This document shows positions 36,624 through 54,640 of a DNA stretch of 64,000 bases, piece after piece. Numbering within the stretch: the first letter of the stretch is position 1; every line of letters begins with the position of its first letter. Made by a program: the position numbers and the translations under genes. Origin of the DNA: an uncultured Planctomycetia bacterium (GTDB lineage Bacteria > Omnitrophota > Gorgyraeia > Duberdicusellales > 4484-171); the NCBI GenBank assembly GCA_964489445.1, contig CAZAYU010000002.1, positions 355,900-419,899 on the forward strand, read 5' to 3'. The notes beneath the pieces were generated by a model that saw only the letters and a program-made list of their open reading frames with translations, did no database searches and was not told where the DNA came from.

Positions 36624-38066
36624 ATGTGTAACGTAAAAGGGTTTCCAGATAGTTCTGAAACTTACAAGCGTCTTTTAAATATTTCGAAGAATTGTCAACC
36701 CAAAAATAAGTATAATTTTAAAGTAGGGATTATTGTTCCTCCTTCACCTTTTGTTGTCCCTGTGGGTTGGGAATTTGTCCACGTTGCTCCTTTTGAAGGA
36801 CCTTCGATAATTGCTAGTCTTTTAAAAGGGCTCGGTTTTGATGTGGTTGTAATAGATCAACGGGATAATTTTAATCCCCATGTTTTATCTAACGGGCGAT
36901 TGAAGAATCTGGATTTAATTGGAGTAGCGACTTATTCCGATAGTTTTCCATACATCAGAAAAGTTATTCAGATCGCTAAAGAAGAAAGCTTAGAGAGGCC
37001 AGTAATTATCGGTGGACCGCTGGTAACTTCTGTTCCTAAGTTAATAATGGAAAATACGTTGGCTGATTATGCGGTAATTGGTGAGGGAGAATTAACTTTG
37101 ATAGAATTAATGGATTTTTTATTAAAACAAAAAGAAGCTTTTTCAGCAAAAGAGATAAGGGGCCTTGCTTGGAAGAATGTGCTGGGAAAGACAGTGCTTA
37201 ACCCAAGAAGGGCGCAGATGCATAATCTTGATGCTGTGCCTTTGCAAGATTTGTCTGTATGGCCCGGAGTACAAGAAACTAATATGACATCTGAGATATA
37301 TATGACATCAAGCCGAGGTTGTTCGGGAAATTGTAGTTTTTGTTTTAGATCGATGCCGCTTTTACGTTATAAATCTCCGGAAAGGGTGCATCGGGAACTC
37401 AAGCATTTAAAAAAATATAAATATCGTTTTGTTTGGTGGAGCGATCTTACCTTTATAGAGACTAAAGAAAGAGTTCATAAGCTTATGGATGAGGCCTTTT
37501 CTGGAATAGATTTTCGTTGGAGTTGTTTTACTCGGGTTGATGGTTTAGATTTATCGGTTCTCCAACATATGAAAAAAAAAGGTTGTGATATTGTTATGTA
37601 TGGATTTGAATCAATCACTGGTAAAATTTTGAATTGTTTCAAAAAGCGGGTTTCAAAATATCAAATTACAGAAGCTATAGAACTTACTCGTCAAGCAGGA
37701 TTAAAAGTGGGAGGTCTTTTTATTGTTGGTGGACCTGGGGAAACTAAAGAAAGTTTAAAAAGAATGATAGAGTTTTGTAAAGAATTTAAAGAGGTTACCA
37801 GAGTAAAATATCTTTCTGCTTTGCCAGGCACAGCGCTTTATCATGATGCTGTTAAAAAAGGCATCATTAAAGATGAGTTGGAGCATTTGCATTTTTTAGC
37901 TATGGAACATTCGGTAGAAGAAGATGAATTCGTAAATTTTTCTGATGTTTCTGAAAAAGAGCTTCGAAGAGCCTACCAGGAGATTAATTATCAGATAAAG
38001 GTACGACCATATGAATACTGGAATCCGGATAACCGATATCTGGAAAAAATAAAGAAATTTAAATAG
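36624..38066 (+). CDS. Cobalamin-binding (class B) radical SAM enzyme, paralog 4
   Basis: 'SSRGCSGNCSFCFRS' (CX3CX2C). N-terminal 'VGIIVPPSPF...' B12-binding-like domain. Confidence 0.8.
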   Translation: MCNVKGFPDSSETYKRLLNISKNCQPKNKYNFKVGIIVPPSPFVVPVGWEFVHVAPFEGPSIIASLLKGLGFDVVVIDQRDNFNPHVLSNGRLKNLDLIGVATYSDSFPYIRKVIQIAKEESLERPVIIGGPLVTSVPKLIMENTLADYAVIGEGELTLIELMDFLLKQKEAFSAKEIRGLAWKNVLGKTVLNPRRAQMHNLDAVPLQDLSVWPGVQETNMTSEIYMTSSRGCSGNCSFCFRSMPLLRYKSPERVHRELKHLKKYKYRFVWWSDLTFIETKERVHKLMDEAFSGIDFRWSCFTRVDGLDLSVLQHMKKKGCDIVMYGFESITGKILNCFKKRVSKYQITEAIELTRQAGLKVGGLFIVGGPGETKESLKRMIEFCKEFKEVTRVKYLSALPGTALYHDAVKKGIIKDELEHLHFLAMEHSVEEDEFVNFSDVSEKELRRAYQEINYQIKVRPYEYWNPDNRYLEKIKKFK

Positions 38067-38078
38067 GACCGGATATTA

Positions 38079-39563
38079 TTGTGTCGACATAGGCTGAGAA
38101 CCAAATATCAAACAATGAAGAATGAAATTTCAGAGCTATTTAAGTGCAACTATGTATATTCTGATGAAAAGGACGCCCAGGAAGAAATTTTAAGGAAAAT
38201 TTCTTATTCAAAAAAAGTTGTTTCTAAGCCTGAAAAAGTAGCCCTTATAATTCCTCCTTCTTCTCAAATTCCGACCCCAGGCAGAGAATTTTTAGTAACT
38301 GGTTCTTTTGAAGGATTTACCTGTGTTGCCACGCTAATAAAAAAAATGGGGCATCAATTGCAGGTTATTGATTGTCGTTTAAAAAAGAATGTAAAGGATT
38401 TTGTTATTAGGAATATTAAGGATGCATCTATTATTGGAATAGCAACATATATGGATTCTTTTAATTTTCTCCAAAGAATAACAGCCTTAATAAAAGAGAA
38501 ATATTCTGATAAATTAATTTTTTTAGGTGGTTCGCTAGTTTCATCTTTACCAGAAATTATGCTTTCGCAGGTCAATGCTGATTGTGCAATTTTAGGCGAG
38601 GCAGAACTTACTTTGATAGAATTTTTCCATAAATATTTTGGAAAAGAATGCTTTGAATATAAAAATATAAAAGGGATGGCCTATAAAAACAATGGAAAAA
38701 TAAAAATTAATTTACCTAGGCCTCAAATTAAAAATCTTGATAATCTTCCTTTGCTTGACTATTCTATTTGGCCTAATCATAAAAGCATAATTGATAAAGG
38801 GCAGATACTAATTTCTTCTATGAGAGGATGTCCTATGGAATGTTCTTTTTGTTTTAAGACAATTCCTGCTCTTCGAATGAAGAGTCTTGAGCGTTTTGAG
38901 CAAGAGATAGTTCATCTTAAAGAAGCAACTAAATTCAATTACACTTGGCTTAATGATCTTACTTTTAATATTGATGAAGAAAGGGCTATATGCATTGGTG
39001 AAATAATGCAAAAATATAGTGTCAAGTATCATTGTTTTGCCAGAGTTACTAAGTTTAGTAAAGCTTTAGCAAAGAAGTTAAGGAAAACAGGATGTTTGGG
39101 AGTTTGGTTTGGCATGGAGTCGTACAATCAAGATGTTTTAGATTATAATGGTAAAAATGTATCTATAGATGATATAAATAGGGTTGTCAGGATTTGTGAT
39201 GATATTGGATTAGCTGCGCGTGGACTTTTTATTGTGGGCCTATATGGTGAGACAGAAGACTCATTAAAGGAAATGCTTACTTTTATTAAGCAAAAAACTT
39301 TTTTACCGCTAGTAAAATATTTGGTTCCATTTCCCGGAACAGCACTTTACAAATATGCTCTTCAAAGTAAAAAAATAACGGATATAGTTAGTTTCTTGAG
39401 GATGCTTTCTAGAAGAAAGATAAGAGATCATGATGACAAGATTATTAATCTTACGGGATTGCAAGATGAGGTTCTTAGGTATTATTTTCGTCAAATATGG
39501 GATATAACGAATAAGAGAGAAAAGTTTTTTGCGGAAACAGAGAAAAAGGAATGCCATGAGTGA
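38079..39563 (+). CDS. Cobalamin-binding (class B) radical SAM enzyme, paralog 5 (in tandem with paralog 4)
   Basis: 'SMRGCPMECSFCFKT' (CX3CX2C). N-terminal 'VALIIPPSSQIPTPG' parallels paralog 4. Confidence 0.8.
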   Translation: MCRHRLRTKYQTMKNEISELFKCNYVYSDEKDAQEEILRKISYSKKVVSKPEKVALIIPPSSQIPTPGREFLVTGSFEGFTCVATLIKKMGHQLQVIDCRLKKNVKDFVIRNIKDASIIGIATYMDSFNFLQRITALIKEKYSDKLIFLGGSLVSSLPEIMLSQVNADCAILGEAELTLIEFFHKYFGKECFEYKNIKGMAYKNNGKIKINLPRPQIKNLDNLPLLDYSIWPNHKSIIDKGQILISSMRGCPMECSFCFKTIPALRMKSLERFEQEIVHLKEATKFNYTWLNDLTFNIDEERAICIGEIMQKYSVKYHCFARVTKFSKALAKKLRKTGCLGVWFGMESYNQDVLDYNGKNVSIDDINRVVRICDDIGLAARGLFIVGLYGETEDSLKEMLTFIKQKTFLPLVKYLVPFPGTALYKYALQSKKITDIVSFLRMLSRRKIRDHDDKIINLTGLQDEVLRYYFRQIWDITNKREKFFAETEKKECHE

Positions 39564-40305
39564 TTTTTATCAGAAGCTAAAGAACCAATTTAAATTAAGA
39601 GCTGAATCTTTTGATAACTCGGCATGTTGGGTGAGAAATAAAAAGTTGATAGATATCCATCAAAAATTAGCTCAAGTTTCAAATAATAGTTTGGTTCTTG
39701 ATGTTTGTTGTGGTACTGGCATAGTAGGAGAAAACCTACTATGCAATGGATCAAAGGCGATAGGCCTTGATATAAGCTTATCAATGCTTAAAAAGGCCAA
39801 AGAAAGATTAAGCTTGTGTATCAATGGCGAGGCAGAGCATTTACCATTTTTAAATAATGTTTTCGATGTGGTAATTTGCCGACAGGCTTTTCATTTTTTA
39901 GATATCACTAAAGTAATGAAGGAGTTGTTCCGGGTTACTAAATCGGGAGGAGGCAAAATCATTATCAGCCAGATAGTTCCTTTTAGCGAAGAAGATAGCC
40001 CATGGTTACATAAGATACACCGAAAGAAGCAGTTGCTGTTAAAGAATTTTTTAAAGGAAAAAGATTTCAAATTATTTTTAAAAAATTTAGGATGTGTGGA
40101 CATAACCACTCTTCAGTGTTGTATTGAAGAGCCAATTAATAGTTGGTTAAAGGATACATTTTTTTCCAAGAAAGAAATAGAGGATATAAAGAATATGTTT
40201 TTGCATGCTCCTTTAAAATATAAGATTTTGCATTGCACTAGAGAAAAGAGTGGAAAAGTTTTTGATACTATGAGGTGGGTAGTTACAAAGGGTATAAAGA
40301 TGTAA
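39556..40305 (+). CDS. Class I SAM-dependent methyltransferase (Methyltransf_11/UbiE-like)
   Basis: Motif I 'VLDVCCGTGIVG'. Post-I 'GLDIS'. Motif II/III 'FDVVICRQAFHFL'. The track start at 39529 overlaps the upstream gene by 35 nt. The ATG at 39556 (ATGAGTGA overlap) is more likely. Confidence 0.8.
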   Translation: MSDFYQKLKNQFKLRAESFDNSACWVRNKKLIDIHQKLAQVSNNSLVLDVCCGTGIVGENLLCNGSKAIGLDISLSMLKKAKERLSLCINGEAEHLPFLNNVFDVVICRQAFHFLDITKVMKELFRVTKSGGGKIIISQIVPFSEEDSPWLHKIHRKKQLLLKNFLKEKDFKLFLKNLGCVDITTLQCCIEEPINSWLKDTFFSKKEIEDIKNMFLHAPLKYKILHCTREKSGKVFDTMRWVVTKGIKM

Positions 40306-40403: not shown

Positions 40404-42344
40404 ATGAAAAAATTTATCAGTGCTACTATTTGTTTTAGCGTATTTGCTTTAAGTTTATTTTGCATTTCAGTAAAATCTGAAGAGACAAGTAAGCCATTAA
40501 AAGATATTTTTAAAGAATTTGGAATCTTAATAAATGGAGTAGGTGATTTTGTTGTTCAAAAAAATATAAGAAAAGAAGGGCTTGAAAATTCATTCTGGAC
40601 AATTGTTGCAGAAAAAGACGGGAAAGTAATTAAAATAGAAGCTATAAATAATATTAATTCCCAAGAAGCCCGAAAATATGCTGAAGAAAGACAGAATATA
40701 GTTAAGGCTTTATATCAACGTATTCCTTCTCCTTATCCCGGCATGATTTCAAACGTTATAGAGTGCCCCGATGAATTAAAACCTGAGATTGTATCTTTAG
40801 ATATAGAAGGGAAGATAGTTTCTGCATATATCTTGTATAGCACGCCTAGATTCACCTATGGAGCTGGAGTTGAGGAATTGATTAAATATAGGGGAGTTTT
40901 GATGTTTATCTATGGGGATAAGGTAAGAACGTTGTATAGAGTTGAAATATTTATTCCTAAAGAAAAATTTAACAAAAAGGAAATAGTAGATATTTTAAAA
41001 TCAATTCGCTTAGAAAAAGGAGGCAGCTATCCTAAACAAGACTATGTCAATGCTTCGGAAAAGGCATGGGGTGAACCCTATAGAAAAACAGATATTTCTG
41101 AAGGCTATAATTTAATTATCATCGGGTTTGACCCCTTGGGTGCAAAGCATATTGGTGCTTATGGATACCACAGGAATACTACTCCTAATCTGGATAACTT
41201 TTCAAAAAAGGCTTTTTTGTTTAAAAATGCCATTAGTTCTTCCAGCTGGACGCTACCTTCATTTATGTCTTGGTTTACGTCATTGTATCCTTCGCAGCAT
41301 AAGATTGTTAATAAATATAGTACTTACACTGAAGAGAAGCAGGTTCTTTCTAACCTTTCAACGCTTTCCCCTTCTGTTGTTACCCTGGCGCAAATTTTAA
41401 AAAGAAACGGATATCTAACTGCCGGGTTTACCGGTGATGCAGGAGTTGGGGGTGTTTTCGGCTATAGCTTAGGGTTTGATGTTTATTATGATAAAATAAA
41501 ATTTGCCGGATTCGACATTGTTCTGCCCATGGCTTTAGATTGGCTTAATGAACATAGGCTCAAGAAATTTTTTTTATTTATCCAAGGCTACGATGTTCAT
41601 GGGCAACATAGCCTTGGCGATGATTTTAGGAATATATTTGTTAGCAAAAATTATGATGGAAAGTATAGGGGTACAACAAAAGAGTATTGGGATTTAAGGA
41701 ATAAGAGCCTAGAGCAGAAATGTCTGGAGATGAACGATGAAGATATAAATTTTTGGAATGCATGGTATGATACAAAAATATATAAAGCTGACCAAAGATT
41801 AGGAAATTTCTTCAAAGAGATAGAAAAGTTAGGGTTAATGGAGAATACGGTGGTGGTTATTTCTTCAGCATCAGGGAATGAATTTTATGAACATAAAAGG
41901 TTTGATCATGGCCATAGTTTGTATGATGAGCTGGTACACGTTCCTCTAGTGATACGGGTTCCGGAAAAGAACGGATGCGCGATAGAAAGCCAAGTGCGGA
42001 CTATTGATATCATGCCGACAGTATTAGACTTATTGAATATAGAAATTGATAAGAATATTAAATATAAAATACAAGGGGTAAGCTTAGCTTCACTCATGGA
42101 GGGAAATGAGTTAGATCTAGATGCTTTTTCTGAGACTGATTATTTATCTCAGGTTTTTAAACGTTCCATAAGAACACACAATGGCTGGAAGTTTATATAT
42201 TCAATAGAGACTGAGCAGCGCGAGCTATATAATTTGAATGAAGACCCTTATGAGGCGTATAATTTAATCAATAAAGAACAGAAGATTGCTTATGAACTTG
42301 AACAAAGAATTTTTAATTGGTCTGAGAGCTTAAAAAGGAAGTAA
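40404..42344 (+). CDS. Exported sulfatase-fold (alkaline-phosphatase superfamily, PF00884-like) enzyme, paralog 1. It lacks the Cys/Ser-x-Pro-x-Arg FGly motif, so it is a probable phospho-transferase or phosphodiesterase rather than a sulfatase.
   Basis: Signal peptide. A roughly 200-aa N-terminal domain. Then 'YNLIIIGFDPLGAKHIGAYGYHRNTTPNLDNF' and 'SSSSWTLPSFMSWFTS', with Thr where sulfatases have the FGly Cys. C-terminal 'LYNLNEDPYEAYNLI' sulfatase-type block. Confidence 0.7.
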   Translation: MKKFISATICFSVFALSLFCISVKSEETSKPLKDIFKEFGILINGVGDFVVQKNIRKEGLENSFWTIVAEKDGKVIKIEAINNINSQEARKYAEERQNIVKALYQRIPSPYPGMISNVIECPDELKPEIVSLDIEGKIVSAYILYSTPRFTYGAGVEELIKYRGVLMFIYGDKVRTLYRVEIFIPKEKFNKKEIVDILKSIRLEKGGSYPKQDYVNASEKAWGEPYRKTDISEGYNLIIIGFDPLGAKHIGAYGYHRNTTPNLDNFSKKAFLFKNAISSSSWTLPSFMSWFTSLYPSQHKIVNKYSTYTEEKQVLSNLSTLSPSVVTLAQILKRNGYLTAGFTGDAGVGGVFGYSLGFDVYYDKIKFAGFDIVLPMALDWLNEHRLKKFFLFIQGYDVHGQHSLGDDFRNIFVSKNYDGKYRGTTKEYWDLRNKSLEQKCLEMNDEDINFWNAWYDTKIYKADQRLGNFFKEIEKLGLMENTVVVISSASGNEFYEHKRFDHGHSLYDELVHVPLVIRVPEKNGCAIESQVRTIDIMPTVLDLLNIEIDKNIKYKIQGVSLASLMEGNELDLDAFSETDYLSQVFKRSIRTHNGWKFIYSIETEQRELYNLNEDPYEAYNLINKEQKIAYELEQRIFNWSESLKRK

Positions 42345-42424: not shown

Positions 42425-42721
42425 ATGAATAAAAAAAATATCCTAAAAATAATAGCTGATTCAATCAGCGAAATTAATGAAATGAGGCCTAATGATGAAT
42501 ACATCGGTCAAACTTTGGAAACTATTTTGTTTGATACTTCTAGAGAAATTGATTCACTAGAATTTGTAATGTTGATTGTATCGATAGAGAAAAAACTCAA
42601 GAAAGAGTCTGGCAAATGTGTGATTTTAGCAGAAGGAAAAACAATGTTGTACAAAGATGCTTCTTTTCGAAGTGTTGGTGCACTGGTTGATTATATTGAC
42701 TCTATTTTAAAGGACAGCTAA
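42425..42721 (+). CDS. Acyl/peptidyl carrier protein (ACP 1)
   Basis: 98 aa. Phosphopantetheine-attachment motif 'EIDSLEFVMLI' (DSL). It directly abuts the FkbH-like gene. Confidence 0.65.
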   Translation: MNKKNILKIIADSISEINEMRPNDEYIGQTLETILFDTSREIDSLEFVMLIVSIEKKLKKESGKCVILAEGKTMLYKDASFRSVGALVDYIDSILKDS

Positions 42722-44419
42722 GTGTCTAAGATTAAATCAATAATCGTAACAGATTTTACTGCCGATGCCTTAAAAGGCTACCTAAACAATGATACCTGCT
42801 ATCCTTTAGTTAACGCAAAGATTACGCCATTTGCTCAGGTTATGCAATCTTATTTCAAGAGATTTCCAGAATTTGGAAAAAATAAGATTAACTTTGCAGT
42901 TGTCTGGACTAGACCAGAAGGCGTTATTGAATCTTTTATGCGCTTTGCTAATTATCAAAGCGCATCAATTAATGAGATATTAGCCGATGTCAACGAGTAT
43001 TGCCGGTTTTTAATAGGTCTTCAAGATAAGGTAAAATTAGTATTTGTTCCGACATGGATTTTCCCTACTTATCATAGAGGACATGGAATGCTGGAAATGA
43101 GAAAAGATTTAGGCATTAGAAATATTCTTATGCAAATGAACTTAATGCTTTCTGATAAGTTAAATGAAACAAAGAATATTTATTTATTGAATGCTCAAAG
43201 ATGGATTGAAAGCGTAGGCAGTGATGCTTTTGATTCAAAGTTGTGGTATTTAGCTAAGATTCCTTTTGATGCTGCAATCTTCAAGGAAGCGGCAAAAGAT
43301 ATTAAGTCTGCATTAAGAGGTATATTTGGTGTTGCAAGAAAGATGATAATCGTTGATTTAGACAATACGATCTGGGGAGGTTCTGTTGGAGAAATAGGAT
43401 GGGAGAAGCTTAAACTTGGCGGGCATGATCCAGTAGGAGAAGCTTTTGTTGACTTTCAGAGAGCTTTAAAGTCATTTATTAACCGTGGCATTTTATTAGG
43501 TATTGTTAGCAAAAATGAGCCGTCCGTTGTGTTAGATGCAATAAATAATCATCCAGAAATGTGTCTAAGATTAAATGATTTTAGTGCATGGGCGATTAAC
43601 TGGGAAGATAAAGCTAAAAATATCATTCGTTTAGCATCGAATTTAAATATTGGTCTTGAATCAATAGTCTTTATTGATGATAATCCATTAGAAAGAGCAA
43701 GGGTCAAAGAGTCTTTGCCGGAGGTTTTTGTTCCTGAATGGCCTAAGAACAAGATGCTGTTTAGGGAAACTTTGCTTAATCTTTCTTGCTTTGATACACC
43801 TTCAATAACTGAGGAGGATTTAGCCAAGACTAGAATGTATATGTCTTTTATCAGCCGTAAAGGGCAGCAAATAAAAATGAAGTCAGTGAATACATGGTTA
43901 AAAAAACTGTTTATTAAAGTAAAAATAGATGAGTTGCAGGATGTTGATATTGAAAGAGTAACGCAACTGTTAAATAAAACAAATCAAATGAATTTAACTA
44001 CTAGACGCCTTATTGCCTCAGAGTTGGATATTTGGGCCCATAAAAGAAATCATAAGCTTTGGACTTTTCGAGTTTCAAATAAATTTGGGGATTTAGGCTT
44101 AGTAGGTGTGGTAAGCCTTGGAATAAACAGAAAAGAAGGCAGGATTGTAGATTTTGTTTTAAGCTGCAGAGCTTTTGGGTTAAGGATTGAAGAAGCTATG
44201 CTCATTGCAACTATACGGTATTCTCAAAGTGTTGGTTTAATAAAAGTGCAGGCAAAATATATCAGCACTCCTAAGAATAAGCCTTGTTTAAATTTTTGGA
44301 GAAAAACAATATTTGAATTTGACAAAAAAAGAAATATCTTTTTTTATAGTCCAGGAAAAACTCATTATTTTCCGCGATACATTACAATAGTAGACAATCG
44401 ACGCAGTGATCCCTGTTAG
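42722..44419 (+). CDS. FkbH-like HAD-superfamily (subfamily IIIC) glyceryl-ACP loading enzyme
   Basis: HAD motif I 'MIIVDLDNTIWGG'. Motif II 'GIVSKN'. Motif IV 'VFIDDNPLERARV'. A C-terminal roughly 200-aa FkbH-type domain. 565 aa. Confidence 0.75.
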   Translation: MSKIKSIIVTDFTADALKGYLNNDTCYPLVNAKITPFAQVMQSYFKRFPEFGKNKINFAVVWTRPEGVIESFMRFANYQSASINEILADVNEYCRFLIGLQDKVKLVFVPTWIFPTYHRGHGMLEMRKDLGIRNILMQMNLMLSDKLNETKNIYLLNAQRWIESVGSDAFDSKLWYLAKIPFDAAIFKEAAKDIKSALRGIFGVARKMIIVDLDNTIWGGSVGEIGWEKLKLGGHDPVGEAFVDFQRALKSFINRGILLGIVSKNEPSVVLDAINNHPEMCLRLNDFSAWAINWEDKAKNIIRLASNLNIGLESIVFIDDNPLERARVKESLPEVFVPEWPKNKMLFRETLLNLSCFDTPSITEEDLAKTRMYMSFISRKGQQIKMKSVNTWLKKLFIKVKIDELQDVDIERVTQLLNKTNQMNLTTRRLIASELDIWAHKRNHKLWTFRVSNKFGDLGLVGVVSLGINRKEGRIVDFVLSCRAFGLRIEEAMLIATIRYSQSVGLIKVQAKYISTPKNKPCLNFWRKTIFEFDKKRNIFFYSPGKTHYFPRYITIVDNRRSDPC

Positions 44420-44481
44420 CCAATTTTTAAATTAGAAGCGAGTAAAAATTTTAGCTTGATATAAGCGGTAGCCAATTCTAG

Positions 44482-45921
44482 ATGCTATTTACTTCATTAC
44501 AATTTGCAGTATTTTTTATTATTGTTTATGGAGTATATACTCTGCTTAAACACAGACAACAGAATATTATGCTTCTTGTGGCCAGTTATATTTTTTATGG
44601 AGCATGGGATTGGAGATTTTTATTTTTGATATTTATATCAACTGTTTTTGATTATTTTTTTGGGGCAGCAATATATAGGTCTAATAGCAATAAGCAAAAA
44701 AAAATATTTGTTTTTTGTAGTATTTTTACAAATTTATCTATTTTAGTGTTTTTTAAATATTTAAATTTTTTTATTCTGAATTTGCAGTTTTTATTAAGAC
44801 GTTTTAATCTGCCTAATGTAATTTTTCCTTTACACATAATACTTCCTTTGGGGTTGTCTTTTTATATTTTTCAAAAAATGAGCTATACCATAGATATATA
44901 TAGAGGTGAGATGAAACCTGTAAGAAAATTTTCAGATTTTGCACTTTTTGTAAGTTTCTTTCCCCAGCTTCTTGCAGGGCCAATCGAAAGAGCAAAGCAC
45001 CTTATTCCGCAGATAATCTTTCCTAGAAAATTAACCATGGATAAATTTCAAAAAGGCTGTTATCTAATATCTTGGGGCATATTCCAGAAACTTTTTGTTG
45101 CGGATAATTTATCAAAAGTTGTGGATTCTGTATTTTCTAATCCGGGTCCTTACAATGGTTTAGAAGTTTTGTTAGCTTCTTATGCTTTTACATTTCAGAT
45201 ATTTTGTGATTTTGCAGGTTATAGCAATATAGCAAGGGGTCTTGGTAAATTAATGGGATTTGATATTATCAATAATTTTGATCTCCCATTTTTTGTTACA
45301 AACGTACAAGATTTTTGGAAAAAATGGCACATTAGCTTGAGCACTTGGATTAAGGATTATGTGTATTTTCCGCTTTTTTATCACATGCGAATGATTAGAG
45401 GTAAAATGCGTATCTATATTACATTAGTAGGTACGATGATTTTGTTAGGCTTGTGGCATGGCGCAAGATGGACCTTTGTCCTTTTTGGGTTATATTATGG
45501 TTGTTTGCTTAGCTTGTATGTAATGTCAAAACCTGTTTTATGCAAAGCGATAAAAATTGTAAAATTCACAAAAAGCAGGCAGTGGTTTTGGGTTAAAGTT
45601 ATTTTCATGTTTCATATTACAGTGCTTGGAATGCTAATTTTTAGAGCTAATTCTGTTGGCCAGCTAATACAAATGGTTCATAGCGTTGTGTTTAATTTTT
45701 CTATTCCAGAATATTCGATTATGCTCAGAATGATCGGAAAAATATTATTTTATATTAGTTTTTTGTTACTTATCCAGTATTTTCAATTTAGAAGAAATGA
45801 TCATTTTGTTGTTCTTAAATGGCATTGGGCGTTGCAAGGATTTATATATTTTATAATTATGTTTTTTTTGTTTACTTTTGGCAAAAGCGGAGGAAATGAG
45901 TTTGTATATTTTCAATTCTAA
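44482..45921 (+). CDS. MBOAT-family membrane O-acyltransferase (DltB/AlgI-like), copy 1
   Basis: MBOAT signature 'FWKKWHISLSTWIKDYVYFPL' with the conserved His. About 10 TM helices. Confidence 0.85.
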   Translation: MLFTSLQFAVFFIIVYGVYTLLKHRQQNIMLLVASYIFYGAWDWRFLFLIFISTVFDYFFGAAIYRSNSNKQKKIFVFCSIFTNLSILVFFKYLNFFILNLQFLLRRFNLPNVIFPLHIILPLGLSFYIFQKMSYTIDIYRGEMKPVRKFSDFALFVSFFPQLLAGPIERAKHLIPQIIFPRKLTMDKFQKGCYLISWGIFQKLFVADNLSKVVDSVFSNPGPYNGLEVLLASYAFTFQIFCDFAGYSNIARGLGKLMGFDIINNFDLPFFVTNVQDFWKKWHISLSTWIKDYVYFPLFYHMRMIRGKMRIYITLVGTMILLGLWHGARWTFVLFGLYYGCLLSLYVMSKPVLCKAIKIVKFTKSRQWFWVKVIFMFHITVLGMLIFRANSVGQLIQMVHSVVFNFSIPEYSIMLRMIGKILFYISFLLLIQYFQFRRNDHFVVLKWHWALQGFIYFIIMFFLFTFGKSGGNEFVYFQF

Positions 45922-47152
45922 TTTCCGAAAGATTCTGCGATTTTTCATGCTTAATCGTGCTTTTTTTGCTGGAGTTTTATTTTTTTGTTTTTCGCAATTA
46001 ATTTGTTTGAATATTTCCAATATAAGCAAAACAAGGCATAAGCAAGTGATAGAGCACAAGCGACAAGCAGTAAAGAGTATCGATTTCAGCAAAGATAAAG
46101 GATTGCGAGAGTCTGTATTTTTTTTTGGCTCATCCAAGATCTTAGCAGCTATAATTCCAAAATTTTTTGACGAATGCAATGAAGATGGAACATATTCTTA
46201 TAATTTTGCAATACCAGGATTACCATTGGCATCTCAATATTTTATTTTTAAAGAATATTTGGAAAAAACCGAAGTACCCGATTATGCAATAATAAAACTA
46301 AATAATGGAATATTTCCTCTTTGGCTTTTTCCTTCTTTTTCTATTCAAGGCGCGAGTTTGTCCGAGGTTTTGCAGTATGCTTTTCTTACGAAAGATGTAT
46401 CAATGTTATTTAACTATTTTATTCCATCAAGGGTGTATTGGTCCGGCATTAGCAGATTTATTGCTGGTAGGGCCCTATCTTTAGTACCTGATAGCGTGCG
46501 GGCATTACATAAATCAAGATATCTTAATTTTTTTTCTAGTAAAAATATGTATTACTATAATTGGGAGTTTGAATATGATGCTAGCTACATTTTTCCAAAA
46601 GAATATGCAAGAGCGTTGAGAGAATCTTTAGAAAAGAATCGAGGATATTATTATATGGTGGAAAAGGCTATGCCAAGAACAGGCGCTTTTGAAAGTATTA
46701 CAGTGCCACCGAAACACAGAAAATACTATGAAGCAATAATAGAGGCGGGTAGGGAAGGAAAAAACTTTAAAGGGCCTGTTTCTGTAAAGACTACAAAGCG
46801 CGAAAGAGATACGAAAAAGAAGCTTGATACTTTTTTCTTGGATAAATTTTTTATATTGGCCAAAGATTATAAGTGTAAAGTCATTTTGGTTGGAGATTAT
46901 ATGCCTGATAGCAACAAAGATACTCCAGGCGTTTATATTGAGGAAAATATAACCCTGGGCTGTTGGGAGCTATTGCAAAAAAAATATGATAATGTATTTT
47001 TTTTAAAGGATGGCTTTAAGACCGTATTTTATAGTCCGGATTTTTTTTCTGACCCCGAACATTTGGATTATGAGGGGGCAAAAAAATTTACAAAAAAGAT
47101 TGCTAAGGAATTTCAAGCAATAAAAAAAATAATCAAAAGCAATAAACAATAA
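45878..47152 (+). CDS. DltD/AlgJ/AlgX-like (SGNH-related) acyl-transfer partner protein
   Basis: N-terminal TM anchor. 'VFFFGSSKI' corresponds to the DltD GSSE nucleophile block. C-terminal 'DPEHLDYEGAKKF' corresponds to the D..H catalytic block. The start may be the ATG at 45896. It overlaps the MBOAT gene's end. Confidence 0.6.
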   Translation: MAKAEEMSLYIFNSNFRKILRFFMLNRAFFAGVLFFCFSQLICLNISNISKTRHKQVIEHKRQAVKSIDFSKDKGLRESVFFFGSSKILAAIIPKFFDECNEDGTYSYNFAIPGLPLASQYFIFKEYLEKTEVPDYAIIKLNNGIFPLWLFPSFSIQGASLSEVLQYAFLTKDVSMLFNYFIPSRVYWSGISRFIAGRALSLVPDSVRALHKSRYLNFFSSKNMYYYNWEFEYDASYIFPKEYARALRESLEKNRGYYYMVEKAMPRTGAFESITVPPKHRKYYEAIIEAGREGKNFKGPVSVKTTKRERDTKKKLDTFFLDKFFILAKDYKCKVILVGDYMPDSNKDTPGVYIEENITLGCWELLQKKYDNVFFLKDGFKTVFYSPDFFSDPEHLDYEGAKKFTKKIAKEFQAIKKIIKSNKQ

Positions 47153-47153
47153 A

Positions 47154-48332
47154 ATGCATTTTATAAGTTTAACATATTTGGTATTTCTATTTATATCTGC
47201 TACCATCTATTGGTTTTTTCCCGTCAAGCATCGAAAGTTGTTTTTAATATTTATCAGTTTATTATTTATCTGCAGTTATAAATGGGTAATTGCTTTTTTA
47301 TTTTTATTCATGGGGACAGCGACTTATTTTAGCAGCAGATTTATATTAAGTACGACTTCAAATTGGAAGAAAAAAATAATTTTTATATCAATTTTGATTG
47401 GTTTTATAGTAAGTCTCTTTTTATATAAGTATTTTGGGCTAAATTTATTGTTGGTACATTCATCTTTTGAATCATTTGATTTTCTTATAGCGCTGGGGTT
47501 TTCATATGTTTCCTTTAGAATGATACATTATATTATTGAGAGCTACCGGAAGAATGTTCCTGACGTTTCATTCTTGGATTTTATTTGTTATGTTGTGTTT
47601 TTTCCCATTTTTTTGGCCGGTCCGATAGAAAGATTTCAAGCGTTTCATCGGCAAACAGCGGAAAATAAACACATAGGATTTTATGATGTAAATTATGGAT
47701 TATATCGTATAATTTGCGGTGTTTTTAAAAAGGTTGCTGTTGCAGACGTTATAAGCAAGCTAATCACGCCAGTATTATACTATCCTCTTGGCCATTCCAA
47801 AACTATATTGATATTATCGGTATATGGATTGGCGATACAAATTTATATGGATTTTTCTGGGTATACGGATATAGCAATTGGTAGTGCCAGATTATTTGGC
47901 TATCGGCTTACGGAAAATTTTAATAGGCCATTTTTACAGAAAAATATAGCGTTGTTTTGGAGAAATTGGCATATATCCCTGTATACTTGGATAAGGGATT
48001 ATTTCTTTTTTCCGTTATTTGGTTATCGGGCATCAAAGGTAAAAATCTATATTGGAATATTTTTCAGTATGATGGTATTTATTCTTTGGCACCGGCTATC
48101 ATTAAGCTTTTTTATCTTAGGATTGTATCATGGAACGGGCCTTATTTGTTGGCATATTTTTCAAGGTGTGAAACGTAAATATCCAATAATTCGTCGAGGA
48201 ATATCAAAACGGTACTTGGATCCTATTTCGATCTTTTTTACGTTTAGTTTTCATGCTTTTGGTACCTTATTCTTTATAATGAATTTTGAGCAGGTATTAA
48301 TTATTGTAAAAAGTATTATAAATCTAAAGTGA
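47154..48332 (+). CDS. MBOAT-family membrane O-acyltransferase (DltB/AlgI-like), copy 2
   Basis: 'FWRNWHISLYTWIRDYFFFPLFG' MBOAT signature. 392 aa. Confidence 0.85.
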   Translation: MHFISLTYLVFLFISATIYWFFPVKHRKLFLIFISLLFICSYKWVIAFLFLFMGTATYFSSRFILSTTSNWKKKIIFISILIGFIVSLFLYKYFGLNLLLVHSSFESFDFLIALGFSYVSFRMIHYIIESYRKNVPDVSFLDFICYVVFFPIFLAGPIERFQAFHRQTAENKHIGFYDVNYGLYRIICGVFKKVAVADVISKLITPVLYYPLGHSKTILILSVYGLAIQIYMDFSGYTDIAIGSARLFGYRLTENFNRPFLQKNIALFWRNWHISLYTWIRDYFFFPLFGYRASKVKIYIGIFFSMMVFILWHRLSLSFFILGLYHGTGLICWHIFQGVKRKYPIIRRGISKRYLDPISIFFTFSFHAFGTLFFIMNFEQVLIIVKSIINLK

Positions 48333-48609: not shown

Positions 48610-49899
48610 ATGAAGATTTTATTGGTATCCTCAAATATTGCTGATACACCCTACGCTGTTTATCCTTTTGGTATGAGTATAGTTGCGTCTGCGCTTTCTA
48701 GTGCAGGATATTGCGTTAAGCAAACAGATTTTTTACAGAGCAAAAAATCTCTGGATGTTTTATCAAAAGAGCTTAACGCTATGCAGCCAAATATAGTAGG
48801 GGTATCGATGCGTAATATAGATAATGTTAATTCAGTCAATGAGCAGCGCTACATTGACAGCGTTGTAGATATTGTTTTGACGGTAAAGAAGAATTCAAGT
48901 GCTATTGTTGTGCTAGGTGGTTCTGGATTTTCTCTTATGCCTGATGAAATTCTTGAAAAAACAGGTGCAGATTATGGAATTACGGGAGAAGGTGAGAAAC
49001 TAATGGTTGAATTTGTAAAAAATGCTGAAAAAGGTATTTTTCCTGGAGCGAAAATTCTGCGAAGTAAAAATACAATCGCTGGTTGTAACATCTCAAGTGC
49101 TTTGCATGATCTAAAGTTAATGAAGTATTATTTAAGAAGAATTAACGTTGCTTCTGTTCAGACAAAAAGGGGGTGTCCTTATAAATGCATTTACTGTTCG
49201 TATCCTCTCTTAGAAGGTGATAGAGTTAGAGTAAGAAGTCCGAAAATCGTTATTGAGGATATTAAGAAATTGACTAGAAAATATGGAATAAAGCTTATTT
49301 TTTTTGTTGACTCTGTTTTTAACGACTCAGAGGGAAGATATTTAGAGCTTATAGAACAAATGAAATATCATAAAGTAAATGTTTCATGGACGGCGCTGTT
49401 TACTCCTAGAGGATTAACAGATAAAAACGTGAAGTTAATGAAAGATACAGGCTTGCGATTTGCTGAATTAGGGTCGGATGCGCCGACTGATTTTACCTTA
49501 AAAAGATTAGGAAAATCTTTTTTATTTCAAGATATTATTAATGCAAATGATTTATTAGTTAGGCATAAGGTGACGCCTTTGCATTGTTATATGTTCGGGT
49601 GTCCGGGAGAAACAAAAGAAACAGTAATTGAAGGGATTAAGAATATTAAAAAATTAAAAAGCTCGGTTTCGGTTATTTATATGGGTATAAGAATTTTTCC
49701 GAACACTAAGTTAGCGAAGGTTGCAGAGAACGATGGTATAATAAAAAAAGAATGTAATCTTTTAGATTCCGCTTATTATATTAGCCCTTTAGTTGACAAA
49801 AAATGGCTAAAAAAAATACTAATAAAAAGTTTTAAGGGAGTAAAGAATTGCATTTTCCCGCCTGATGCATTAAGCAATTATCGAATATATAAAAAGTGA
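48610..49899 (+). CDS. Cobalamin-binding (class B) radical SAM enzyme, paralog 6
   Basis: 'TKRGCPYKCIYCSYP' (CX3CX2C). N-terminal 'MKILLVSSNIADTPYAVYPFGMSIVASAL' B12-binding-like. Confidence 0.8.
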   Translation: MKILLVSSNIADTPYAVYPFGMSIVASALSSAGYCVKQTDFLQSKKSLDVLSKELNAMQPNIVGVSMRNIDNVNSVNEQRYIDSVVDIVLTVKKNSSAIVVLGGSGFSLMPDEILEKTGADYGITGEGEKLMVEFVKNAEKGIFPGAKILRSKNTIAGCNISSALHDLKLMKYYLRRINVASVQTKRGCPYKCIYCSYPLLEGDRVRVRSPKIVIEDIKKLTRKYGIKLIFFVDSVFNDSEGRYLELIEQMKYHKVNVSWTALFTPRGLTDKNVKLMKDTGLRFAELGSDAPTDFTLKRLGKSFLFQDIINANDLLVRHKVTPLHCYMFGCPGETKETVIEGIKNIKKLKSSVSVIYMGIRIFPNTKLAKVAENDGIIKKECNLLDSAYYISPLVDKKWLKKILIKSFKGVKNCIFPPDALSNYRIYKK

Positions 49900-50164: not shown

Positions 50165-50416
50165 ATGGAGAAAAAAGAGACAATCAGACAATTTATTATC
50201 GAATATTTTCTTTCAGGTAGCGGAGAAATTAAGGATGATGATTCATTATTTGAAGCAGGAATAATAGACTCCCTGAGCCTTCTTGAATTGATCGCTTTTA
50301 TAGAAAAAACATATGGCATTTCTATAAGCATGAGCCAAATCACTATTAGTAATTTTGATTCTATAAATAAAATCTATAAATTAATAAAAGGTAGTAAACG
50401 TAAGGGCATTAATTAG
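50165..50416 (+). CDS. Acyl/peptidyl carrier protein (ACP 2)
   Basis: 'GIIDSLSLLELIAFIEKTYG' (DSL Ser attachment site). Strong RBS 'aggaggtgaat' before the ATG at 50165. The track ORF starts earlier at 50111. Confidence 0.7.
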   Translation: MEKKETIRQFIIEYFLSGSGEIKDDDSLFEAGIIDSLSLLELIAFIEKTYGISISMSQITISNFDSINKIYKLIKGSKRKGIN

Positions 50417-50418
50417 TA

Positions 50419-52857
50419 ATGTTTAATATAAGAATTAATAATGTTACATATGATTTTTCGCGGGAGAAAAATGTTATGATGGCTTTGCGTTTCAAAGGGG
50501 CAAGGCAGCAATGTTTATTTAAGTATGCACGAAATATAAGAGATAAAGTTTTCTCTAAACAGGTCGAAATAAGGAGTGTTATCGAGTATTCTAATGTTTG
50601 TCAGCAGGCATGTAATTATTGCGGAATGAGCAAAGCGTCAATGGTAACTCGTTACATATTAAAAAGAAATCAGCTAATATCTCGTGTTAATAAGTTATAT
50701 GATTGTGGACGTAGAATTATAATATTACAGGCGGGTGAGTGCAATAATGATAATTATTTAGATAATTTGTTTGGCCTAATTAAGATGTTAAAAAATGAAT
50801 ATCCTTATTTAGTCATAGTGGGTAGTTTTGGTAATTTATCGCGAGATAATTATAAAAGATTGAGGGATATTGGGGTCGATAGGTATTTACTTAAATTTGA
50901 AACATCAGATGCTAAGCTATACAGAAGAATTAAGCCTACCGATTGTCTTAAAAAAAGACTAGATTGCATTACATTTTTAAAGAAAATAGGTTTTTATGTC
51001 AGCTCTGGCAATATAACTGGGATACCGCAACAATCTCTTAGTAGTTTAGCTGATGATATTTTTTTACTTAAAAAATTAGATATTTGCATGGGTAGCACAT
51101 CACCTTTTATTCCTAACGAGGTTTCTAATTATAGAGATTGTTTTCCGGGAGATATTAATCTTACGCTTAATTTTATAGCAATCCTAAGGATACTCTGTCC
51201 GACTATGTTAATACCTGCTACAAGTTCTTTGGAATTGATTATAAAGGGAGGCCAGTATCTGGGGCTGATGGCAGGAGCAAATGTGCTTACTTTGCATGAT
51301 GGAACTCCCGCAAATAAAGAAAAAATGTTTTTGTTGTATAAAAAGAATCGGTACAAGCCTAAGGGAATTCTATTTAATATTGTTCAAAGAGCAGGCCTGA
51401 AGCCAAGCTTATTTTCTCTTGTTAAGAATAAAGCAGAAAACTCTCTTTTTTATAAACTCGTTAGCCAGAATGTCAATCGTAAGAGTTCTTATATTTATTC
51501 CGATAGCAGTAGGTATACATACGAGGAAGTGCTATTATTGACTTCGAAATGCTGTTCGTTCTTGCAAGGCAATAATATTAAGGAGAGGGATGTAGTAATG
51601 TTAGCTTTATTTGATTCAATAGAATTCATTATTGTTTGCCTAGCTTGCATAAGACTAGGCATAATTGTTGCACCGATAGATCCGCTATCAACTGTAGACG
51701 AGCTAAGGTTTTTAATCTCTGATTGTGTACCCAAAATTATATTAGCAACAGATAGTATTGCTAAGAAATTAAGATACAAGAATGTTATGAAAATAACCAA
51801 CGATAATTGCCCTAAATATTTTTTTTCGTTGCTCTGCAGGAGAAAAAAAAGTATTTTTTTAGCTGCTGTTGATAAAAATAATCCGGCTATTATTTTGTAT
51901 ACTTCTGGGACTACAGGCAAGGCCAAAGGTGTAGTCCACAGCTATAATGATCTACTTACTATGAATTTTCCACATAAGATATTGAGGGTATGCAAAAAAG
52001 ATATTTTCTTTTCTTATTCTAGGATTTATACTAGTTTTGGTTTTGGTAATAGTTTACTTTTTCCGTTATATTGTGGTGCGTCTGTAATTTTATCCAGAAA
52101 TATCCCAAATCCGGTTGCATTGTCTGATGTGTTATTGTATAATCCTACATTATTTTTTGCGGTTCCCGGCGTGTATAAGCTATTGTTAAGAAGTAGAAAA
52201 CTAATAAAACATAATTTTAGTTGTGTTCGTCAATTTATTTCTTCTGGTGAGAGTCTCGGTGAGGATATTTTTAAGCAATGGGAAAAAGTTTATGGCTTTA
52301 GGTTATTGGATTGTTTTGGAACATCTGAGATGTGCCATCCGTTTATTTCGAATATTCCGGGAGAGGAAAAATCTGGGACTTGCGGAAAAACGGTAGAAGG
52401 ATTTCAGGTAAAGTTTGATAAAAAAGGTAAAATGTTTTACAAGGGGCCTTCCTTGTTTTCTGGATATTATAGAAGGAATAAATTTGTAAAAGAAACAATG
52501 GTGGTTGATGGATGGTTTGAATCAAATGATATTGGACGCGTAGATAAAAATGGCAGTATAGTTTTAAAAGGCAGAGACAATCTAATATTTAAGATTAATG
52601 GTAAGTGGATTTCAGCCTTAAATATAGAGGATAAAATAAATCGATTGGAGTTAATAAAGGAAAGCGCTGCTATAAAGAAAGCAGACGGTTTATATCTGTA
52701 TGTTTCTTTAAATTTAAAGGAAATAAAACCTGTTGAGGCTATAAGCTTAGTAAGAAGTTATTGTGTAGAAAAATTGAAAATTAACGAATTTCCCGTAAAA
52801 ATAAACTTGTTAGATGAAATACCGAAGACAAGAAGCGGGAAAATTAAAAGACAGTAA
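50419..52857 (+). CDS. Fusion protein: N-terminal HydE/PylB/BioB-like radical SAM domain plus C-terminal adenylation (AMP-binding, acyl-CoA-synthetase/DltA-like) domain
   Basis: Radical SAM: 'IEYSNVCQQACNYCGMS' (CX3CX2C) and 'IIILQAGE', reminiscent of HydE/PylB 'SNYC..NC.YCG...VLQSGE'. Adenylation: 'ILYTSGTTGKAKGVV' (A3), 'GESLG', 'GFRLLDCFGTSE' (A5), 'GWFESNDIGRVDKNGSIVLKGRDNLIFKINGKWI' (A7/A8), 'PKTRSGKIKRQ' (A10). It is a single 812-aa frame. Confidence 0.75.
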   Translation: MFNIRINNVTYDFSREKNVMMALRFKGARQQCLFKYARNIRDKVFSKQVEIRSVIEYSNVCQQACNYCGMSKASMVTRYILKRNQLISRVNKLYDCGRRIIILQAGECNNDNYLDNLFGLIKMLKNEYPYLVIVGSFGNLSRDNYKRLRDIGVDRYLLKFETSDAKLYRRIKPTDCLKKRLDCITFLKKIGFYVSSGNITGIPQQSLSSLADDIFLLKKLDICMGSTSPFIPNEVSNYRDCFPGDINLTLNFIAILRILCPTMLIPATSSLELIIKGGQYLGLMAGANVLTLHDGTPANKEKMFLLYKKNRYKPKGILFNIVQRAGLKPSLFSLVKNKAENSLFYKLVSQNVNRKSSYIYSDSSRYTYEEVLLLTSKCCSFLQGNNIKERDVVMLALFDSIEFIIVCLACIRLGIIVAPIDPLSTVDELRFLISDCVPKIILATDSIAKKLRYKNVMKITNDNCPKYFFSLLCRRKKSIFLAAVDKNNPAIILYTSGTTGKAKGVVHSYNDLLTMNFPHKILRVCKKDIFFSYSRIYTSFGFGNSLLFPLYCGASVILSRNIPNPVALSDVLLYNPTLFFAVPGVYKLLLRSRKLIKHNFSCVRQFISSGESLGEDIFKQWEKVYGFRLLDCFGTSEMCHPFISNIPGEEKSGTCGKTVEGFQVKFDKKGKMFYKGPSLFSGYYRRNKFVKETMVVDGWFESNDIGRVDKNGSIVLKGRDNLIFKINGKWISALNIEDKINRLELIKESAAIKKADGLYLYVSLNLKEIKPVEAISLVRSYCVEKLKINEFPVKINLLDEIPKTRSGKIKRQ

Positions 52858-52974
52858 TGTTAAAAAGTATTTAATCCAGGGTATTCTCAATTTCTATTAA
52901 ATATTAATCTTGTATTGGTTTTCTAATTTTAGTTTCTCAAAGATTTAAAAGATATACCTTAATTCATGTAGAAT

Positions 52975-54402: not shown

Positions 54403-54485
54403 TGGGTTTAGCAATGGTAAGCGATTTTCATCCATCATGATAGGGCATAAAAATTTGACAACAATCCAAGAGGAGAGCGAATAAG

Positions 54486-54638
54486 ATGAGATTTAATTAT
54501 AAGGATTTTATTCAAATAATTTTGACTCAAAATAAATGGTGGGTGACAACAATGCTTATTAGTACAATATTGATTGTCTTTATAATTTTGTATTTGATAA
54601 AATATGAGACTAGTGAGTTTATCTATAGCCTGTTTTAG
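54486..54638 (+). CDS. Unannotated 50-aa membrane peptide ending ...SEFIYSLF, paralogous to the peptide at 19461-19706
   Basis: Translation 'MRFNYKDFIQIILTQNKWWVTTMLISTILIVFIILYLIKYETSEFIYSLF'. RBS 'gaggagagcgaataag' before the ATG. It is absent from the ORF track because it is short. Confidence 0.5.
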   Translation: MRFNYKDFIQIILTQNKWWVTTMLISTILIVFIILYLIKYETSEFIYSLF

Positions 54639-54640
54639 TC

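Follow-up and report, generated by a model that had tools for sequence, protein, structure and literature searches.

A carrier protein-FkbH pair and two MBOAT-based gene sets, probably three separate cassettes, in a surface-glycan locus of an uncultured bacterium

The genes at positions 42425-48332 of a 64-kb stretch of DNA from an uncultured bacterium (contig CAZAYU010000002.1; the whole stretch is called the window below) encode a putative acyl carrier protein (ACP1), an FkbH-like protein, a membrane-bound O-acyltransferase (MBOAT1), a DltD-like SGNH acyltransferase and a second membrane-bound O-acyltransferase (MBOAT2). Comparison with related loci indicated that this region is probably the junction of three separately conserved cassettes and not one module. 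Cassette A is the ACP1-FkbH pair, cassette B the MBOAT1-SGNH pair, and cassette C consists of MBOAT2 and a Dlt-like gene set located downstream of it. The cassettes follow each other head to tail on the + strand and probably form one operon. An earlier note, made from the sequence alone, had described the five genes as a single O-acylation module built around the FkbH-like protein. All five open reading frames (ORFs) and every motif quoted in it are present, and its component identities were right: the FkbH-like protein passed TIGR01686 and both MBOATs passed PF03062, the SGNH protein was recognized by fold and motif, and an ACP-like protein is encoded as well. The single module was not upheld by the conserved gene neighbourhoods.

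Results

Conserved gene neighbourhoods

The comparison set comprised 15 related loci. Eight of them (L005-L012; metagenome-assembled genomes (MAGs) of Omnitrophota, Entotheonella, Woesearchaeota and Acidobacteriota are among the named sources) contain homologues with 46-58% identity to the FkbH-like protein and were searched for MBOAT genes over 10 kb to either side. MBOAT1 orthologues (46-58% identity) were available from three loci (L013, L016 and L017) and MBOAT2 orthologues (51-54% identity) from another three (L018, L019 and L020). In all eight FkbH loci, an ACP1 homologue of about 100 residues adjoined the FkbH homologue on its upstream side (tblastn E-values 1e-7 to 1e-17), and an MBOAT gene was present within 10 kb in none of them. 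One of these loci, L011, has an Antibiotic_NAT gene between the ACP1-like gene and the FkbH homologue. The MBOAT1-SGNH pair recurred in all three MBOAT1 loci, with the SGNH gene overlapping or adjacent. On these short contigs no FkbH gene was detectable, and no carrier protein gene adjoined any of the orthologous pairs; upstream of the MBOAT1 orthologue lay a divergently transcribed formyltransferase gene (L013) or a flippase gene (L016).

The neighbourhood of MBOAT2 was conserved in another form. In all three loci the genes that come after its orthologue encode an ACP, then an AMP-ligase and a microprotein with a terminal FxYxxF or VxYxxF motif, and SGNH, SGNH-TPR or TPR proteins. The window holds this set in the same order at 50165-56206, with two extra genes inserted, one for a B12-binding radical S-adenosylmethionine (SAM) protein of family TIGR04072 and one for a sulfatase (Table 1). 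The proposal of the earlier note that the second MBOAT might take the product of a second carrier protein (ACP2) and a radical SAM-ligase thus agrees with conserved synteny in three of three orthologous loci. The note had missed two genes that complete this second system, one for the DltX-like microprotein at 54486-54638 and one for the SGNH-TPR protein. The glyceryl hand-off from FkbH to an MBOAT, which it had also predicted, received no support from synteny, and MBOAT1 carries a fused tail of the acyl-CoA type (PMC12148441).

Table 1 Positions and properties of the genes of the three cassettes and of neighbouring tailoring enzymes in the window
Feature	Positions	Strand	Length	Properties
ACP1, carrier-protein-like ORF	42425-42721	+	98 aa	candidate phosphopantetheine site Ser44 in IDSL
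FkbH-like protein	42722-44419	+	565 aa	N-terminal domain of about 200 aa, HAD-IIIC phosphatase domain, C-terminal domain
MBOAT1	44482-45921	+	479 aa	catalytic His283 in WHISL; two extra C-terminal helices; F474-V-Y476-F-Q-F479 at nt 45901-45918
DltD-like SGNH acyltransferase	45896-47152	+	418 aa	N-terminal membrane helix; predicted triad Ser80/Asp386/His389
MBOAT2	47154-48332	+	392 aa	catalytic His273 in WHISL; no C-terminal FxYxxF
B12-binding radical SAM protein	48610-49899	+		TIGR04072 (lipid biosynthesis B12-binding/radical SAM protein), 550 bits (cutoff 360)
ACP2, carrier protein, DltC analogue	50165-50416 (ORF open from 50111)	+	83 aa	Ser36 in IIDSL
Radical SAM-adenylase fusion, DltA analogue	50419-52857	+	812 aa	HydE/PylB-like radical SAM domain, aa ~14-309; adenylate-forming ligase domain, aa ~345-812
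Microprotein, unannotated, DltX-like shuttle candidate	54486-54638	+	50 aa	one membrane helix; C-terminus E-F-I-Y-S-L-F (Tyr47)
SGNH/GDSL-TPR protein, membrane-anchored, DltD analogue for MBOAT2	54641-56206 (probable start ATG 54656)	+		PF13472, 37.2 bits; TPR repeats
B12-binding radical SAM protein	36624-38066	+		assigned by Pfam/NCBIfam
B12-binding radical SAM protein	38079-39563	+		assigned by Pfam/NCBIfam
Class I SAM methyltransferase	39529-40305	+		assigned by Pfam/NCBIfam

ACP1 and the FkbH-like protein

ACP1 is a divergent protein. It matched no Pfam family at E ≤ 1, so the threshold of PF00550 was not reached, and at E < 0.1 the only NCBIfam models found were those of ACP, DltC and AcpM, with 13-16 bits against cutoffs of at least 65. 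A search of the PDB with the single sequence returned noise only. When a profile of the ACP1 family was used, 13 of 15 weak matches in the PDB were ACPs or DltC, and the serine of the DSL motif aligned with the modified serine of AcpM and other ACPs. This residue, Ser44, was invariant in nine sequences, so that the objection named in the earlier note, an ACP-like ORF without a modifiable serine, does not arise. Aligned to each other with hhalign, the ACP1 and ACP2 families gave a probability of 65.7% and an E-value of 5.8e-5, with the DSL motifs in register. The AlphaFold2 (AF2) model obtained from the single sequence was unreliable (pLDDT 51.9); its helices at residues 3-20, 27-41, 45-62 and 84-97 are compatible with a four-helix bundle. 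In L012 a gene for the phosphopantetheinyl transferase ACPS is located two genes upstream of the ACP1-like/FkbH pair. The assignment of ACP1 as a putative carrier protein is thus well supported, if indirectly.

The FkbH-like protein matched TIGR01686 with 250.7 bits (cutoff 146.65) at residues 205-534, covering positions 2-322 of the 323 in the model, and the HAD-IIIC model TIGR01681 with 55.6 bits (cutoff 35.75). Its N-terminal domain corresponds to FkbH_N in the homologues, of which there are more than 4000. The HAD part matched PDB entry 3slr (BF1531) with an E-value of 1e-42, a structural-genomics entry without assigned function. The HAD motifs D212-x-D214-x-T216 (DxDxT), S263, K264, K297 and D319 were invariant in 17 homologues. 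Also invariant was the candidate catalytic Cys482 (in SCR) of the C-terminal domain. With TIGR01686 matched over its full length, DxDxT in place and an invariant cysteine in the C-terminal part, the FkbH-like identity given in the earlier note stands.

The surroundings of the ACP-FkbH pair in the eight loci were characterized by amino-sugar or nonulosonic-acid genes (NeuB, CMP-transferase, aminotransferases). Soluble acyltransferases of the GNAT or Antibiotic_NAT type usually accompanied the pair, together with methyltransferase and B12-binding radical SAM genes; B12-binding radical SAM and/or methyltransferase genes were located near it in L007/L008, L009, L010 and L012. N-Glyceroyl and di-O-methylglyceroyl sugars are known, and their genes have not been assigned (PMC5378307). 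The pair is a plausible glyceroyl donor for glycans, usually via soluble N-acyltransferases. For the missing genes of N-glyceroyl sugars, Pse5Am7Gra for example (PMC5378307), the recurrent pair is a candidate. In the window, two B12-binding radical SAM enzymes and a methyltransferase encoded at 36624-40305 might tailor a glyceryl unit bound to ACP1.

Two gene arrangements among the FkbH loci were distinctive. In L012, a Woesearchaeota MAG, two ACP1-like genes and genes for ACPS, a GNAT, an Antibiotic_NAT and NeuB surround the FkbH gene (8746-10008 and 20084-20374); of all the contexts, this one points most clearly to a nonulosonic acid that is N-acylated from a donor on an ACP. In the Acidobacteriota MAGs L005 and L006 (9600-20400) the ACP-FkbH pair adjoins nonribosomal peptide synthetase modules (A-PCP and C-A-PCP-TE) and a P450 gene, and the locus also carries Wzy, GT4 and sulfotransferase genes; there, the cassette may supply a lipopeptide-like or glycan-linked product.

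MBOAT1 and its SGNH partner

MBOAT1 scored 61.8 bits with PF03062 and matched the DltB structures 8jem and 6bug at an E-value of 1e-25, with His283 aligned to the histidine of the DltB motif WHMSL. It shares 32% identity with MBOAT2 over residues 1-389 and has about 76 additional C-terminal residues, which end in NEFVYFQF; its orthologues in L013, L016 and L017 terminate in EFIYFQF. The hexapeptide FxYxxF is an acyl-shuttle motif (PMC12148441). In PatA, which uses acetyl-CoA, two additional helices of the MBOAT itself bear the motif; its tyrosine becomes auto-acylated, and the SGNH partner then takes the acyl group off (PMC12148441). Fused FxYxxF motifs are also found in AlgI and other non-Dlt MBOATs, whereas in the Dlt pathway DltB has no tail, with the microprotein DltX contributing the motif and a carrier protein serving as donor (PMC12148441). 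Judged by its sequence, MBOAT1 is of the PatA/AlgI type with a fused FxYxxF tail.

The start of the SGNH gene was placed at ATG 45896, 26 nt inside the end of MBOAT1, because the N-terminus of the homologues is conserved; alternative starts would give 401 residues from 45947 (triad S63/D369/H372 in this numbering) or 424 residues from TTG 45878. The ORF matched no curated family, PF04914 (DltD) included, and so the profile checks proposed in the earlier note were positive for TIGR01686 and, with both MBOATs, for PF03062, but not for DltD. A first homologue search with the 401-residue ORF found none, and a single-sequence search of the PDB gave noise only. An exhaustive HMMER search recovered a family of 122 representatives among 1.84 billion, in which Gly-x-Ser, Asn and DxxH were invariant; together, and in the canonical order, these make up the SGNH signature. 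Similarity of the family to DUF1574 is weak. In a fold comparison based on a predicted model DltD was the best match, and other canonical SGNH proteins were matched as well. Of the former label DltD/AlgJ-like, the first half can therefore be retained, whereas AlgJ-like was rejected as the best label because the order Ser...DxxH and the structural matches indicate DltD and canonical SGNH proteins.

A further SGNH homologue, in L014 (559-1762), is split by a frameshift and has no MBOAT1-type gene before it; it may have decayed to a pseudogene or may reflect an error of the assembly.

MBOAT2 and the downstream Dlt-like set

MBOAT2 reached 63.4 bits with PF03062 and matched a DltB structure at an E-value of 2e-25. 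Its sequence ends in IINLK, and its family consists of tail-less MBOATs of about 395 residues. Similarity to DltB was rejected as a way to separate the two MBOATs, since the scores of MBOAT1 and MBOAT2 were nearly equal (158.7 vs 158.6 bits in NCBIfam, 93.9 vs 92.8 bits in the PDB). Neither protein reached the cutoff of 375 bits of the DltB equivalog TIGR04091.

ACP2 passed PF00550 (36.4 bits, cutoff 20.8) and stayed below the cutoff of the DltC model (35.7 bits, cutoff 68); a match to the OlsHI-ACP model was weak. In L018 and L019 the gene directly after the MBOAT2 orthologue encodes an ACP2 orthologue (49-50% identity), and in L020 this position is taken by a PP-binding gene. The TIGR04072 gene between MBOAT2 and ACP2 is an insertion, as its position is empty in all three of these loci; its product may tailor an acyl group on ACP2. 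The next protein, a fusion matching PF04055 and PF00501, scored 219.6 bits with the HydE model TIGR03956 (cutoff 254.6), 116.7 bits with PylB and 228.7 bits with the benzoate-CoA ligase family. A full-length orthologue of 814 residues with 50% identity is encoded at the same position in L018. The fusion protein probably makes an acyl group, activates it and loads it onto ACP2.

The microprotein was found by a six-frame search for ORFs that end in an FxYxxF-type motif. Its gene is preceded by a GAGGAG ribosome-binding site and ends 17 nt upstream of the SGNH-TPR gene, and over its full length the protein is weakly similar to DUF5989 (18.6 bits, E 0.002). The microproteins in the same slot end in KVIYQLF in L018, SFIYVFF in L019 (DUF5989, 26.7 bits) and FFLYPFF in L020. 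A relaxed ending, [FLIVMWY]xYxxF, occurred in only 9 of the 1680 stop-to-stop ORFs of at least 20 residues in the window, and the presence of a motif-bearing microprotein in the same slot of four out of four loci is therefore not due to chance. The SGNH-TPR protein that follows has an N-terminal helix. Its C-terminal His motif is atypical, as is the nucleophile position considered below.

Discussion

Proposed functions of the cassettes

The donors, acceptors and chemistry proposed here are all inferred from what was observed directly, namely the identity of the domains, their motifs and fold, and the conservation of gene neighbourhoods. FkbH and OzmB convert 1,3-bisphosphoglycerate into an enzyme-bound glyceryl thioester and pass the glyceryl unit to an ACP (PMC9057759; PMC7489565). 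By analogy, the FkbH-like enzyme of cassette A would take 1,3-bisphosphoglycerate, dephosphorylate it on an enzyme cysteine, for which Cys482 is the candidate, and transfer the resulting glyceryl thioester to the phosphopantetheine at Ser44 of ACP1. The neighbouring methyltransferase and B12-binding radical SAM enzymes may then modify the glyceryl unit.

Cassette B would operate as a PatA/PatB-type pair. The donor would be a thioester in the cytoplasm, most probably acetyl-CoA or another acyl-CoA; His283 of MBOAT1 is predicted to move its acyl group to Tyr476 at the outer face of the membrane, from where Ser80 of the SGNH protein would take it over and esterify a glycan hydroxyl. In cassette C, the HydE/PylB-like radical SAM-adenylase may make and activate an unusual acid and load it on ACP2; the tail-less MBOAT2 would hand the acyl group to the tyrosine of the 50-residue microprotein (EFIYSLF), and the SGNH-TPR protein would pass it on to an acceptor outside the cytoplasm. 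The adenylase is benzoate-CoA-ligase-like and fused to a HydE/PylB-like domain, so that the line probably carries an acyl or aminoacyl group other than D-alanine. The Dlt/Pat-type logic recognized in the earlier note, which leads from a cytoplasmic donor by MBOAT and SGNH protein to an extracytoplasmic polymer, is borne out by the components.

Alternative readings of the region

Several observations weigh against a division into three cassettes. The five genes are packed as though co-translated, with 0 nt between ACP1 and the FkbH start codon, 62 nt from the FkbH stop to the MBOAT1 start, the overlap of 26 nt between MBOAT1 and the SGNH gene and 1 nt from the SGNH stop to MBOAT2, and about 1.8 kb, inserted radical SAM gene included, separates MBOAT2 from ACP2. 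The samples of loci are small (8, 3 and 3), and the three MBOAT1 contigs contain just 0.2-2.7 kb of upstream sequence. No soluble acyltransferase was found near ACP1-FkbH in the window, which makes MBOAT1 the nearest candidate user of an acyl group bound to ACP1. The donor of a PatA-type MBOAT has been demonstrated for PatA only, and our literature search found no characterized FkbH-like protein from a glycan locus with the extra N-terminal domain. Within cassette C, the nucleophile position in block I of the SGNH-TPR protein is occupied by cysteine (GACYT), whereas five homologues have serine (GDSTT, GASAT, GESVT); owing to this replacement the protein may work differently, by a thioester intermediate, or be impaired.

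On this basis one may argue that glyceryl-ACP from the ACP1-FkbH pair, or a methylated derivative of it, feeds MBOAT1 and possibly MBOAT2, and that Tyr476 and the SGNH protein convert it to an O-glyceroyl ester on a glycan. The tight packing on one strand, with FkbH so close to MBOAT1, and the lack of another acyltransferase near ACP1-FkbH in the window favour such a route; DltB provides a precedent for an MBOAT that accepts a carrier-protein thioester (PMC12148441), and glyceroyl decorations with unassigned genes exist on bacterial glycans (PMC5378307). However, an MBOAT gene was present in none of the eight FkbH loci and an FkbH gene in none of the six MBOAT loci, the MBOAT1 orthologues do without an adjacent carrier protein, the fused-tail architecture has so far been linked to the use of acyl-CoA, and elsewhere the ACP-FkbH pair accompanies soluble N-acyltransferases. 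We regard this route as rather unlikely and kept it instead of rejecting it because of the gene packing, the position of MBOAT1 as nearest consumer and the small samples of loci. A wider version with two parallel carrier-fed lines, from ACP1 by Tyr476 of MBOAT1 to the DltD-like SGNH protein and from ACP2 by MBOAT2 and the microprotein tyrosine to the SGNH-TPR protein, is unlikely. A glycan outside the cytoplasm would then receive two substituents, an O-glyceroyl-type ester and an acyl group derived from radical SAM chemistry; no fused-shuttle MBOAT before MBOAT1 would have been shown to draw on a carrier protein, and glyceroyl decoration outside the cytoplasm would gain a gene basis.

Two other explanations concern single members of the region. 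The FkbH-like protein could be a HAD phosphatase/GNAT-like enzyme whose substrate is a sugar phosphate or a different acyl group, with ACP1 as a non-phosphopantetheinylated accessory subunit; ACP1 did stay below all Pfam and NCBIfam thresholds for carrier proteins and its AF2 model was unreliable, PDB 3slr has no assigned function, and characterized glycan-type FkbH proteins with the extra domain were not met with in the literature. We nevertheless consider this quite improbable in view of the full-length match to TIGR01686 above the trusted cutoff, the invariance of Cys482, of DxDxT and of the DSL serine, the predominance of carrier proteins among the weak profile matches of ACP1 (13 of 15 in the PDB), and the ACPS gene beside the pair in L012. 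Very improbable, finally, is that MBOAT2 serves as an accessory paralogue of the MBOAT1-SGNH machine instead of belonging to the downstream ACP2 system, borrowing the tail of MBOAT1 or the DltD-like SGNH protein to provide a second acceptor or donor specificity. It is favoured by the single nucleotide that separates the end of the SGNH gene from the start of MBOAT2, and by the gap of 277 nt and the inserted gene before ACP2. Against it stand the tail-less orthologues, which directly precede genes for ACP, ligase, microprotein and SGNH protein in three of three loci, none with an MBOAT1-type gene, and the window contains all of these partners in the same order. The arrangement of three separately conserved cassettes thus appears the probable one, and it carries a lesson for annotation, as neighbouring genes in a one-strand glycan island need not form a module.

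Relation to known acylation systems

None of the underlying kinds of system is new, since MBOAT-SGNH acylation, the Dlt pathway and FkbH loaders have each been described before. Cassette C resembles DltXABCD of the Firmicutes in its tail-less MBOAT, carrier protein, adenylate-forming enzyme, one-helix FxYxxF microprotein and membrane-anchored SGNH protein, and the structure that best matches the 418-residue SGNH partner of MBOAT1 is DltD. On the other hand, the MBOATs of the window fall below the DltB equivalog cutoff, the adenylase is benzoate-CoA-ligase-like and fused to a radical SAM domain, the microproteins are DUF5989-like, and the SGNH partner has TPR repeats and a cysteine at the nucleophile position. 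The host locus differs too, being an island of glycosyltransferase, flippase and sulfatase genes whose nearest homologues come from Omnitrophota-type MAGs and not from Firmicutes. Because the DltB cutoff was missed and ACP2 and the ligase are not orthologues of DltC and DltA, the systems of the window are best described as Dlt/Pat-like in their working and not as members of these families. A Dlt-like locus in a Gram-negative is known with the dra genes of Bordetella, a precedent for carrier-protein-dependent MBOAT acylation outside the Gram-positives. The dra genes are close homologues of dlt and transfer D-alanine, while the system in the window has another activating enzyme and another set of partners.

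Cassette B shares with the PatA/PatB, AlgI and WssH pairs the extra C-terminal helices of the MBOAT with the ending FVYFQF (FIYSSF in CjPatA) and a translationally coupled, membrane-anchored SGNH protein with a Ser/Asp/His triad. This partner, of about 400 residues, is DltD-like with a helical insertion, belongs to a rare family and is not of the PatB, AlgJ or AlgX type, and a carrier protein/FkbH pair is located immediately upstream of MBOAT1. Genes for alginate polymerization or export were not seen among the window ORFs in general family scans. Cassette A has in common with the FkbH/OzmB loaders of methoxymalonyl-ACP and tetronate formation the HAD-IIIC and C-terminal domains, DxDxT, a conserved cysteine and a dedicated stand-alone carrier protein. 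It differs from them in the extra N-terminal domain of about 200 residues (OzmB has 366 residues), in a glycan context without dehydrogenases, an FabH-like enzyme or a polyketide synthase, and in an ACP1 that is too divergent for PF00550.

The non-Dlt MBOAT/SGNH pathways were recently stated to have neither a carrier protein nor a DltX-like microprotein (PMC12148441, 2025). Both are present in the MBOAT2 set, of the window as well as of three other metagenomic loci, and in the window a radical SAM/adenylase fusion replaces DltA. As the set combines carrier protein, microprotein and radical SAM/adenylase, the Dlt design would not be limited to the D-alanylation of teichoic acids in Firmicutes. 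Our literature searches revealed no description of a system like cassette C, nor of ACP-FkbH pairs in glycan loci; those for FkbH with MBOAT or polysaccharide found only natural-product clusters in which FkbH and MBOAT act at unrelated steps.

Genomic setting and further microproteins

The window has a G+C content of about 32%, carries nearly all of its genes on the + strand and is a single, very large surface-glycan locus. It encodes glycosyltransferases of families GT1, GT2 and GT4, three PMT_2/ArnT-like enzymes, two Wzx-like flippases and a set of aminotransferases and hexapeptide transferases. Identical copies of window proteins are present on metagenomic contigs, and the closest homologues of several of them belong to Candidatus Omnitrophota and other uncultured lineages. 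Promoter and terminator predictions were not enriched relative to shuffled sequence and yielded no operon boundaries.

Seven B12-binding radical SAM proteins are encoded (gene starts at 8805, 13068, 22580, 36624, 38079, 48610 and 61450), in addition to the HydE/PylB-like domain fused to the ligase at 50419. This density in 64 kb is unusually high and suggests extensive C-methylation or rearrangement of the glycan or of acyl substituents. There are also five genes of the sulfatase/alkaline-phosphatase superfamily on the + strand (30960, 40404, 52975, 56193 and 57495), whose products may add or strip phospho or sulfo substituents on the same polymer. The sulfatase-type gene at 40404-42344 has, by eye, a signal-peptide-like N-terminus and weak LtaS/EptA-type matches. 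An ORF of 564 residues at 7101-8795 (+) matched no Pfam family; it was considered as a second FkbH on account of its comparable length and rejected, as it has no similarity to the FkbH-like protein.

DUF5989-type microproteins were also seen apart from the MBOAT genes. A third SGNH/GDSL gene of the window (18268-19323, +; 351 residues) is followed by a 60-residue microprotein at 19524-19706 that ends in LMYTLF and passes DUF5989 with 45.6 bits (cutoff 27); no MBOAT or AT3 gene adjoins it. Such a protein is paired with a carbamoyltransferase in L009. Taken with the Dlt-like loci, this pairing points to DUF5989 as a general family of DltX-like tyrosine shuttles that also serves non-MBOAT enzymes, and the findings on the Dlt-like set likewise suggest that DUF5989-like microproteins function as acyl-tyrosine shuttles. 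In L009 (207-2173), the microprotein directly follows the carbamoyltransferase gene and ends in APFVYTLF.

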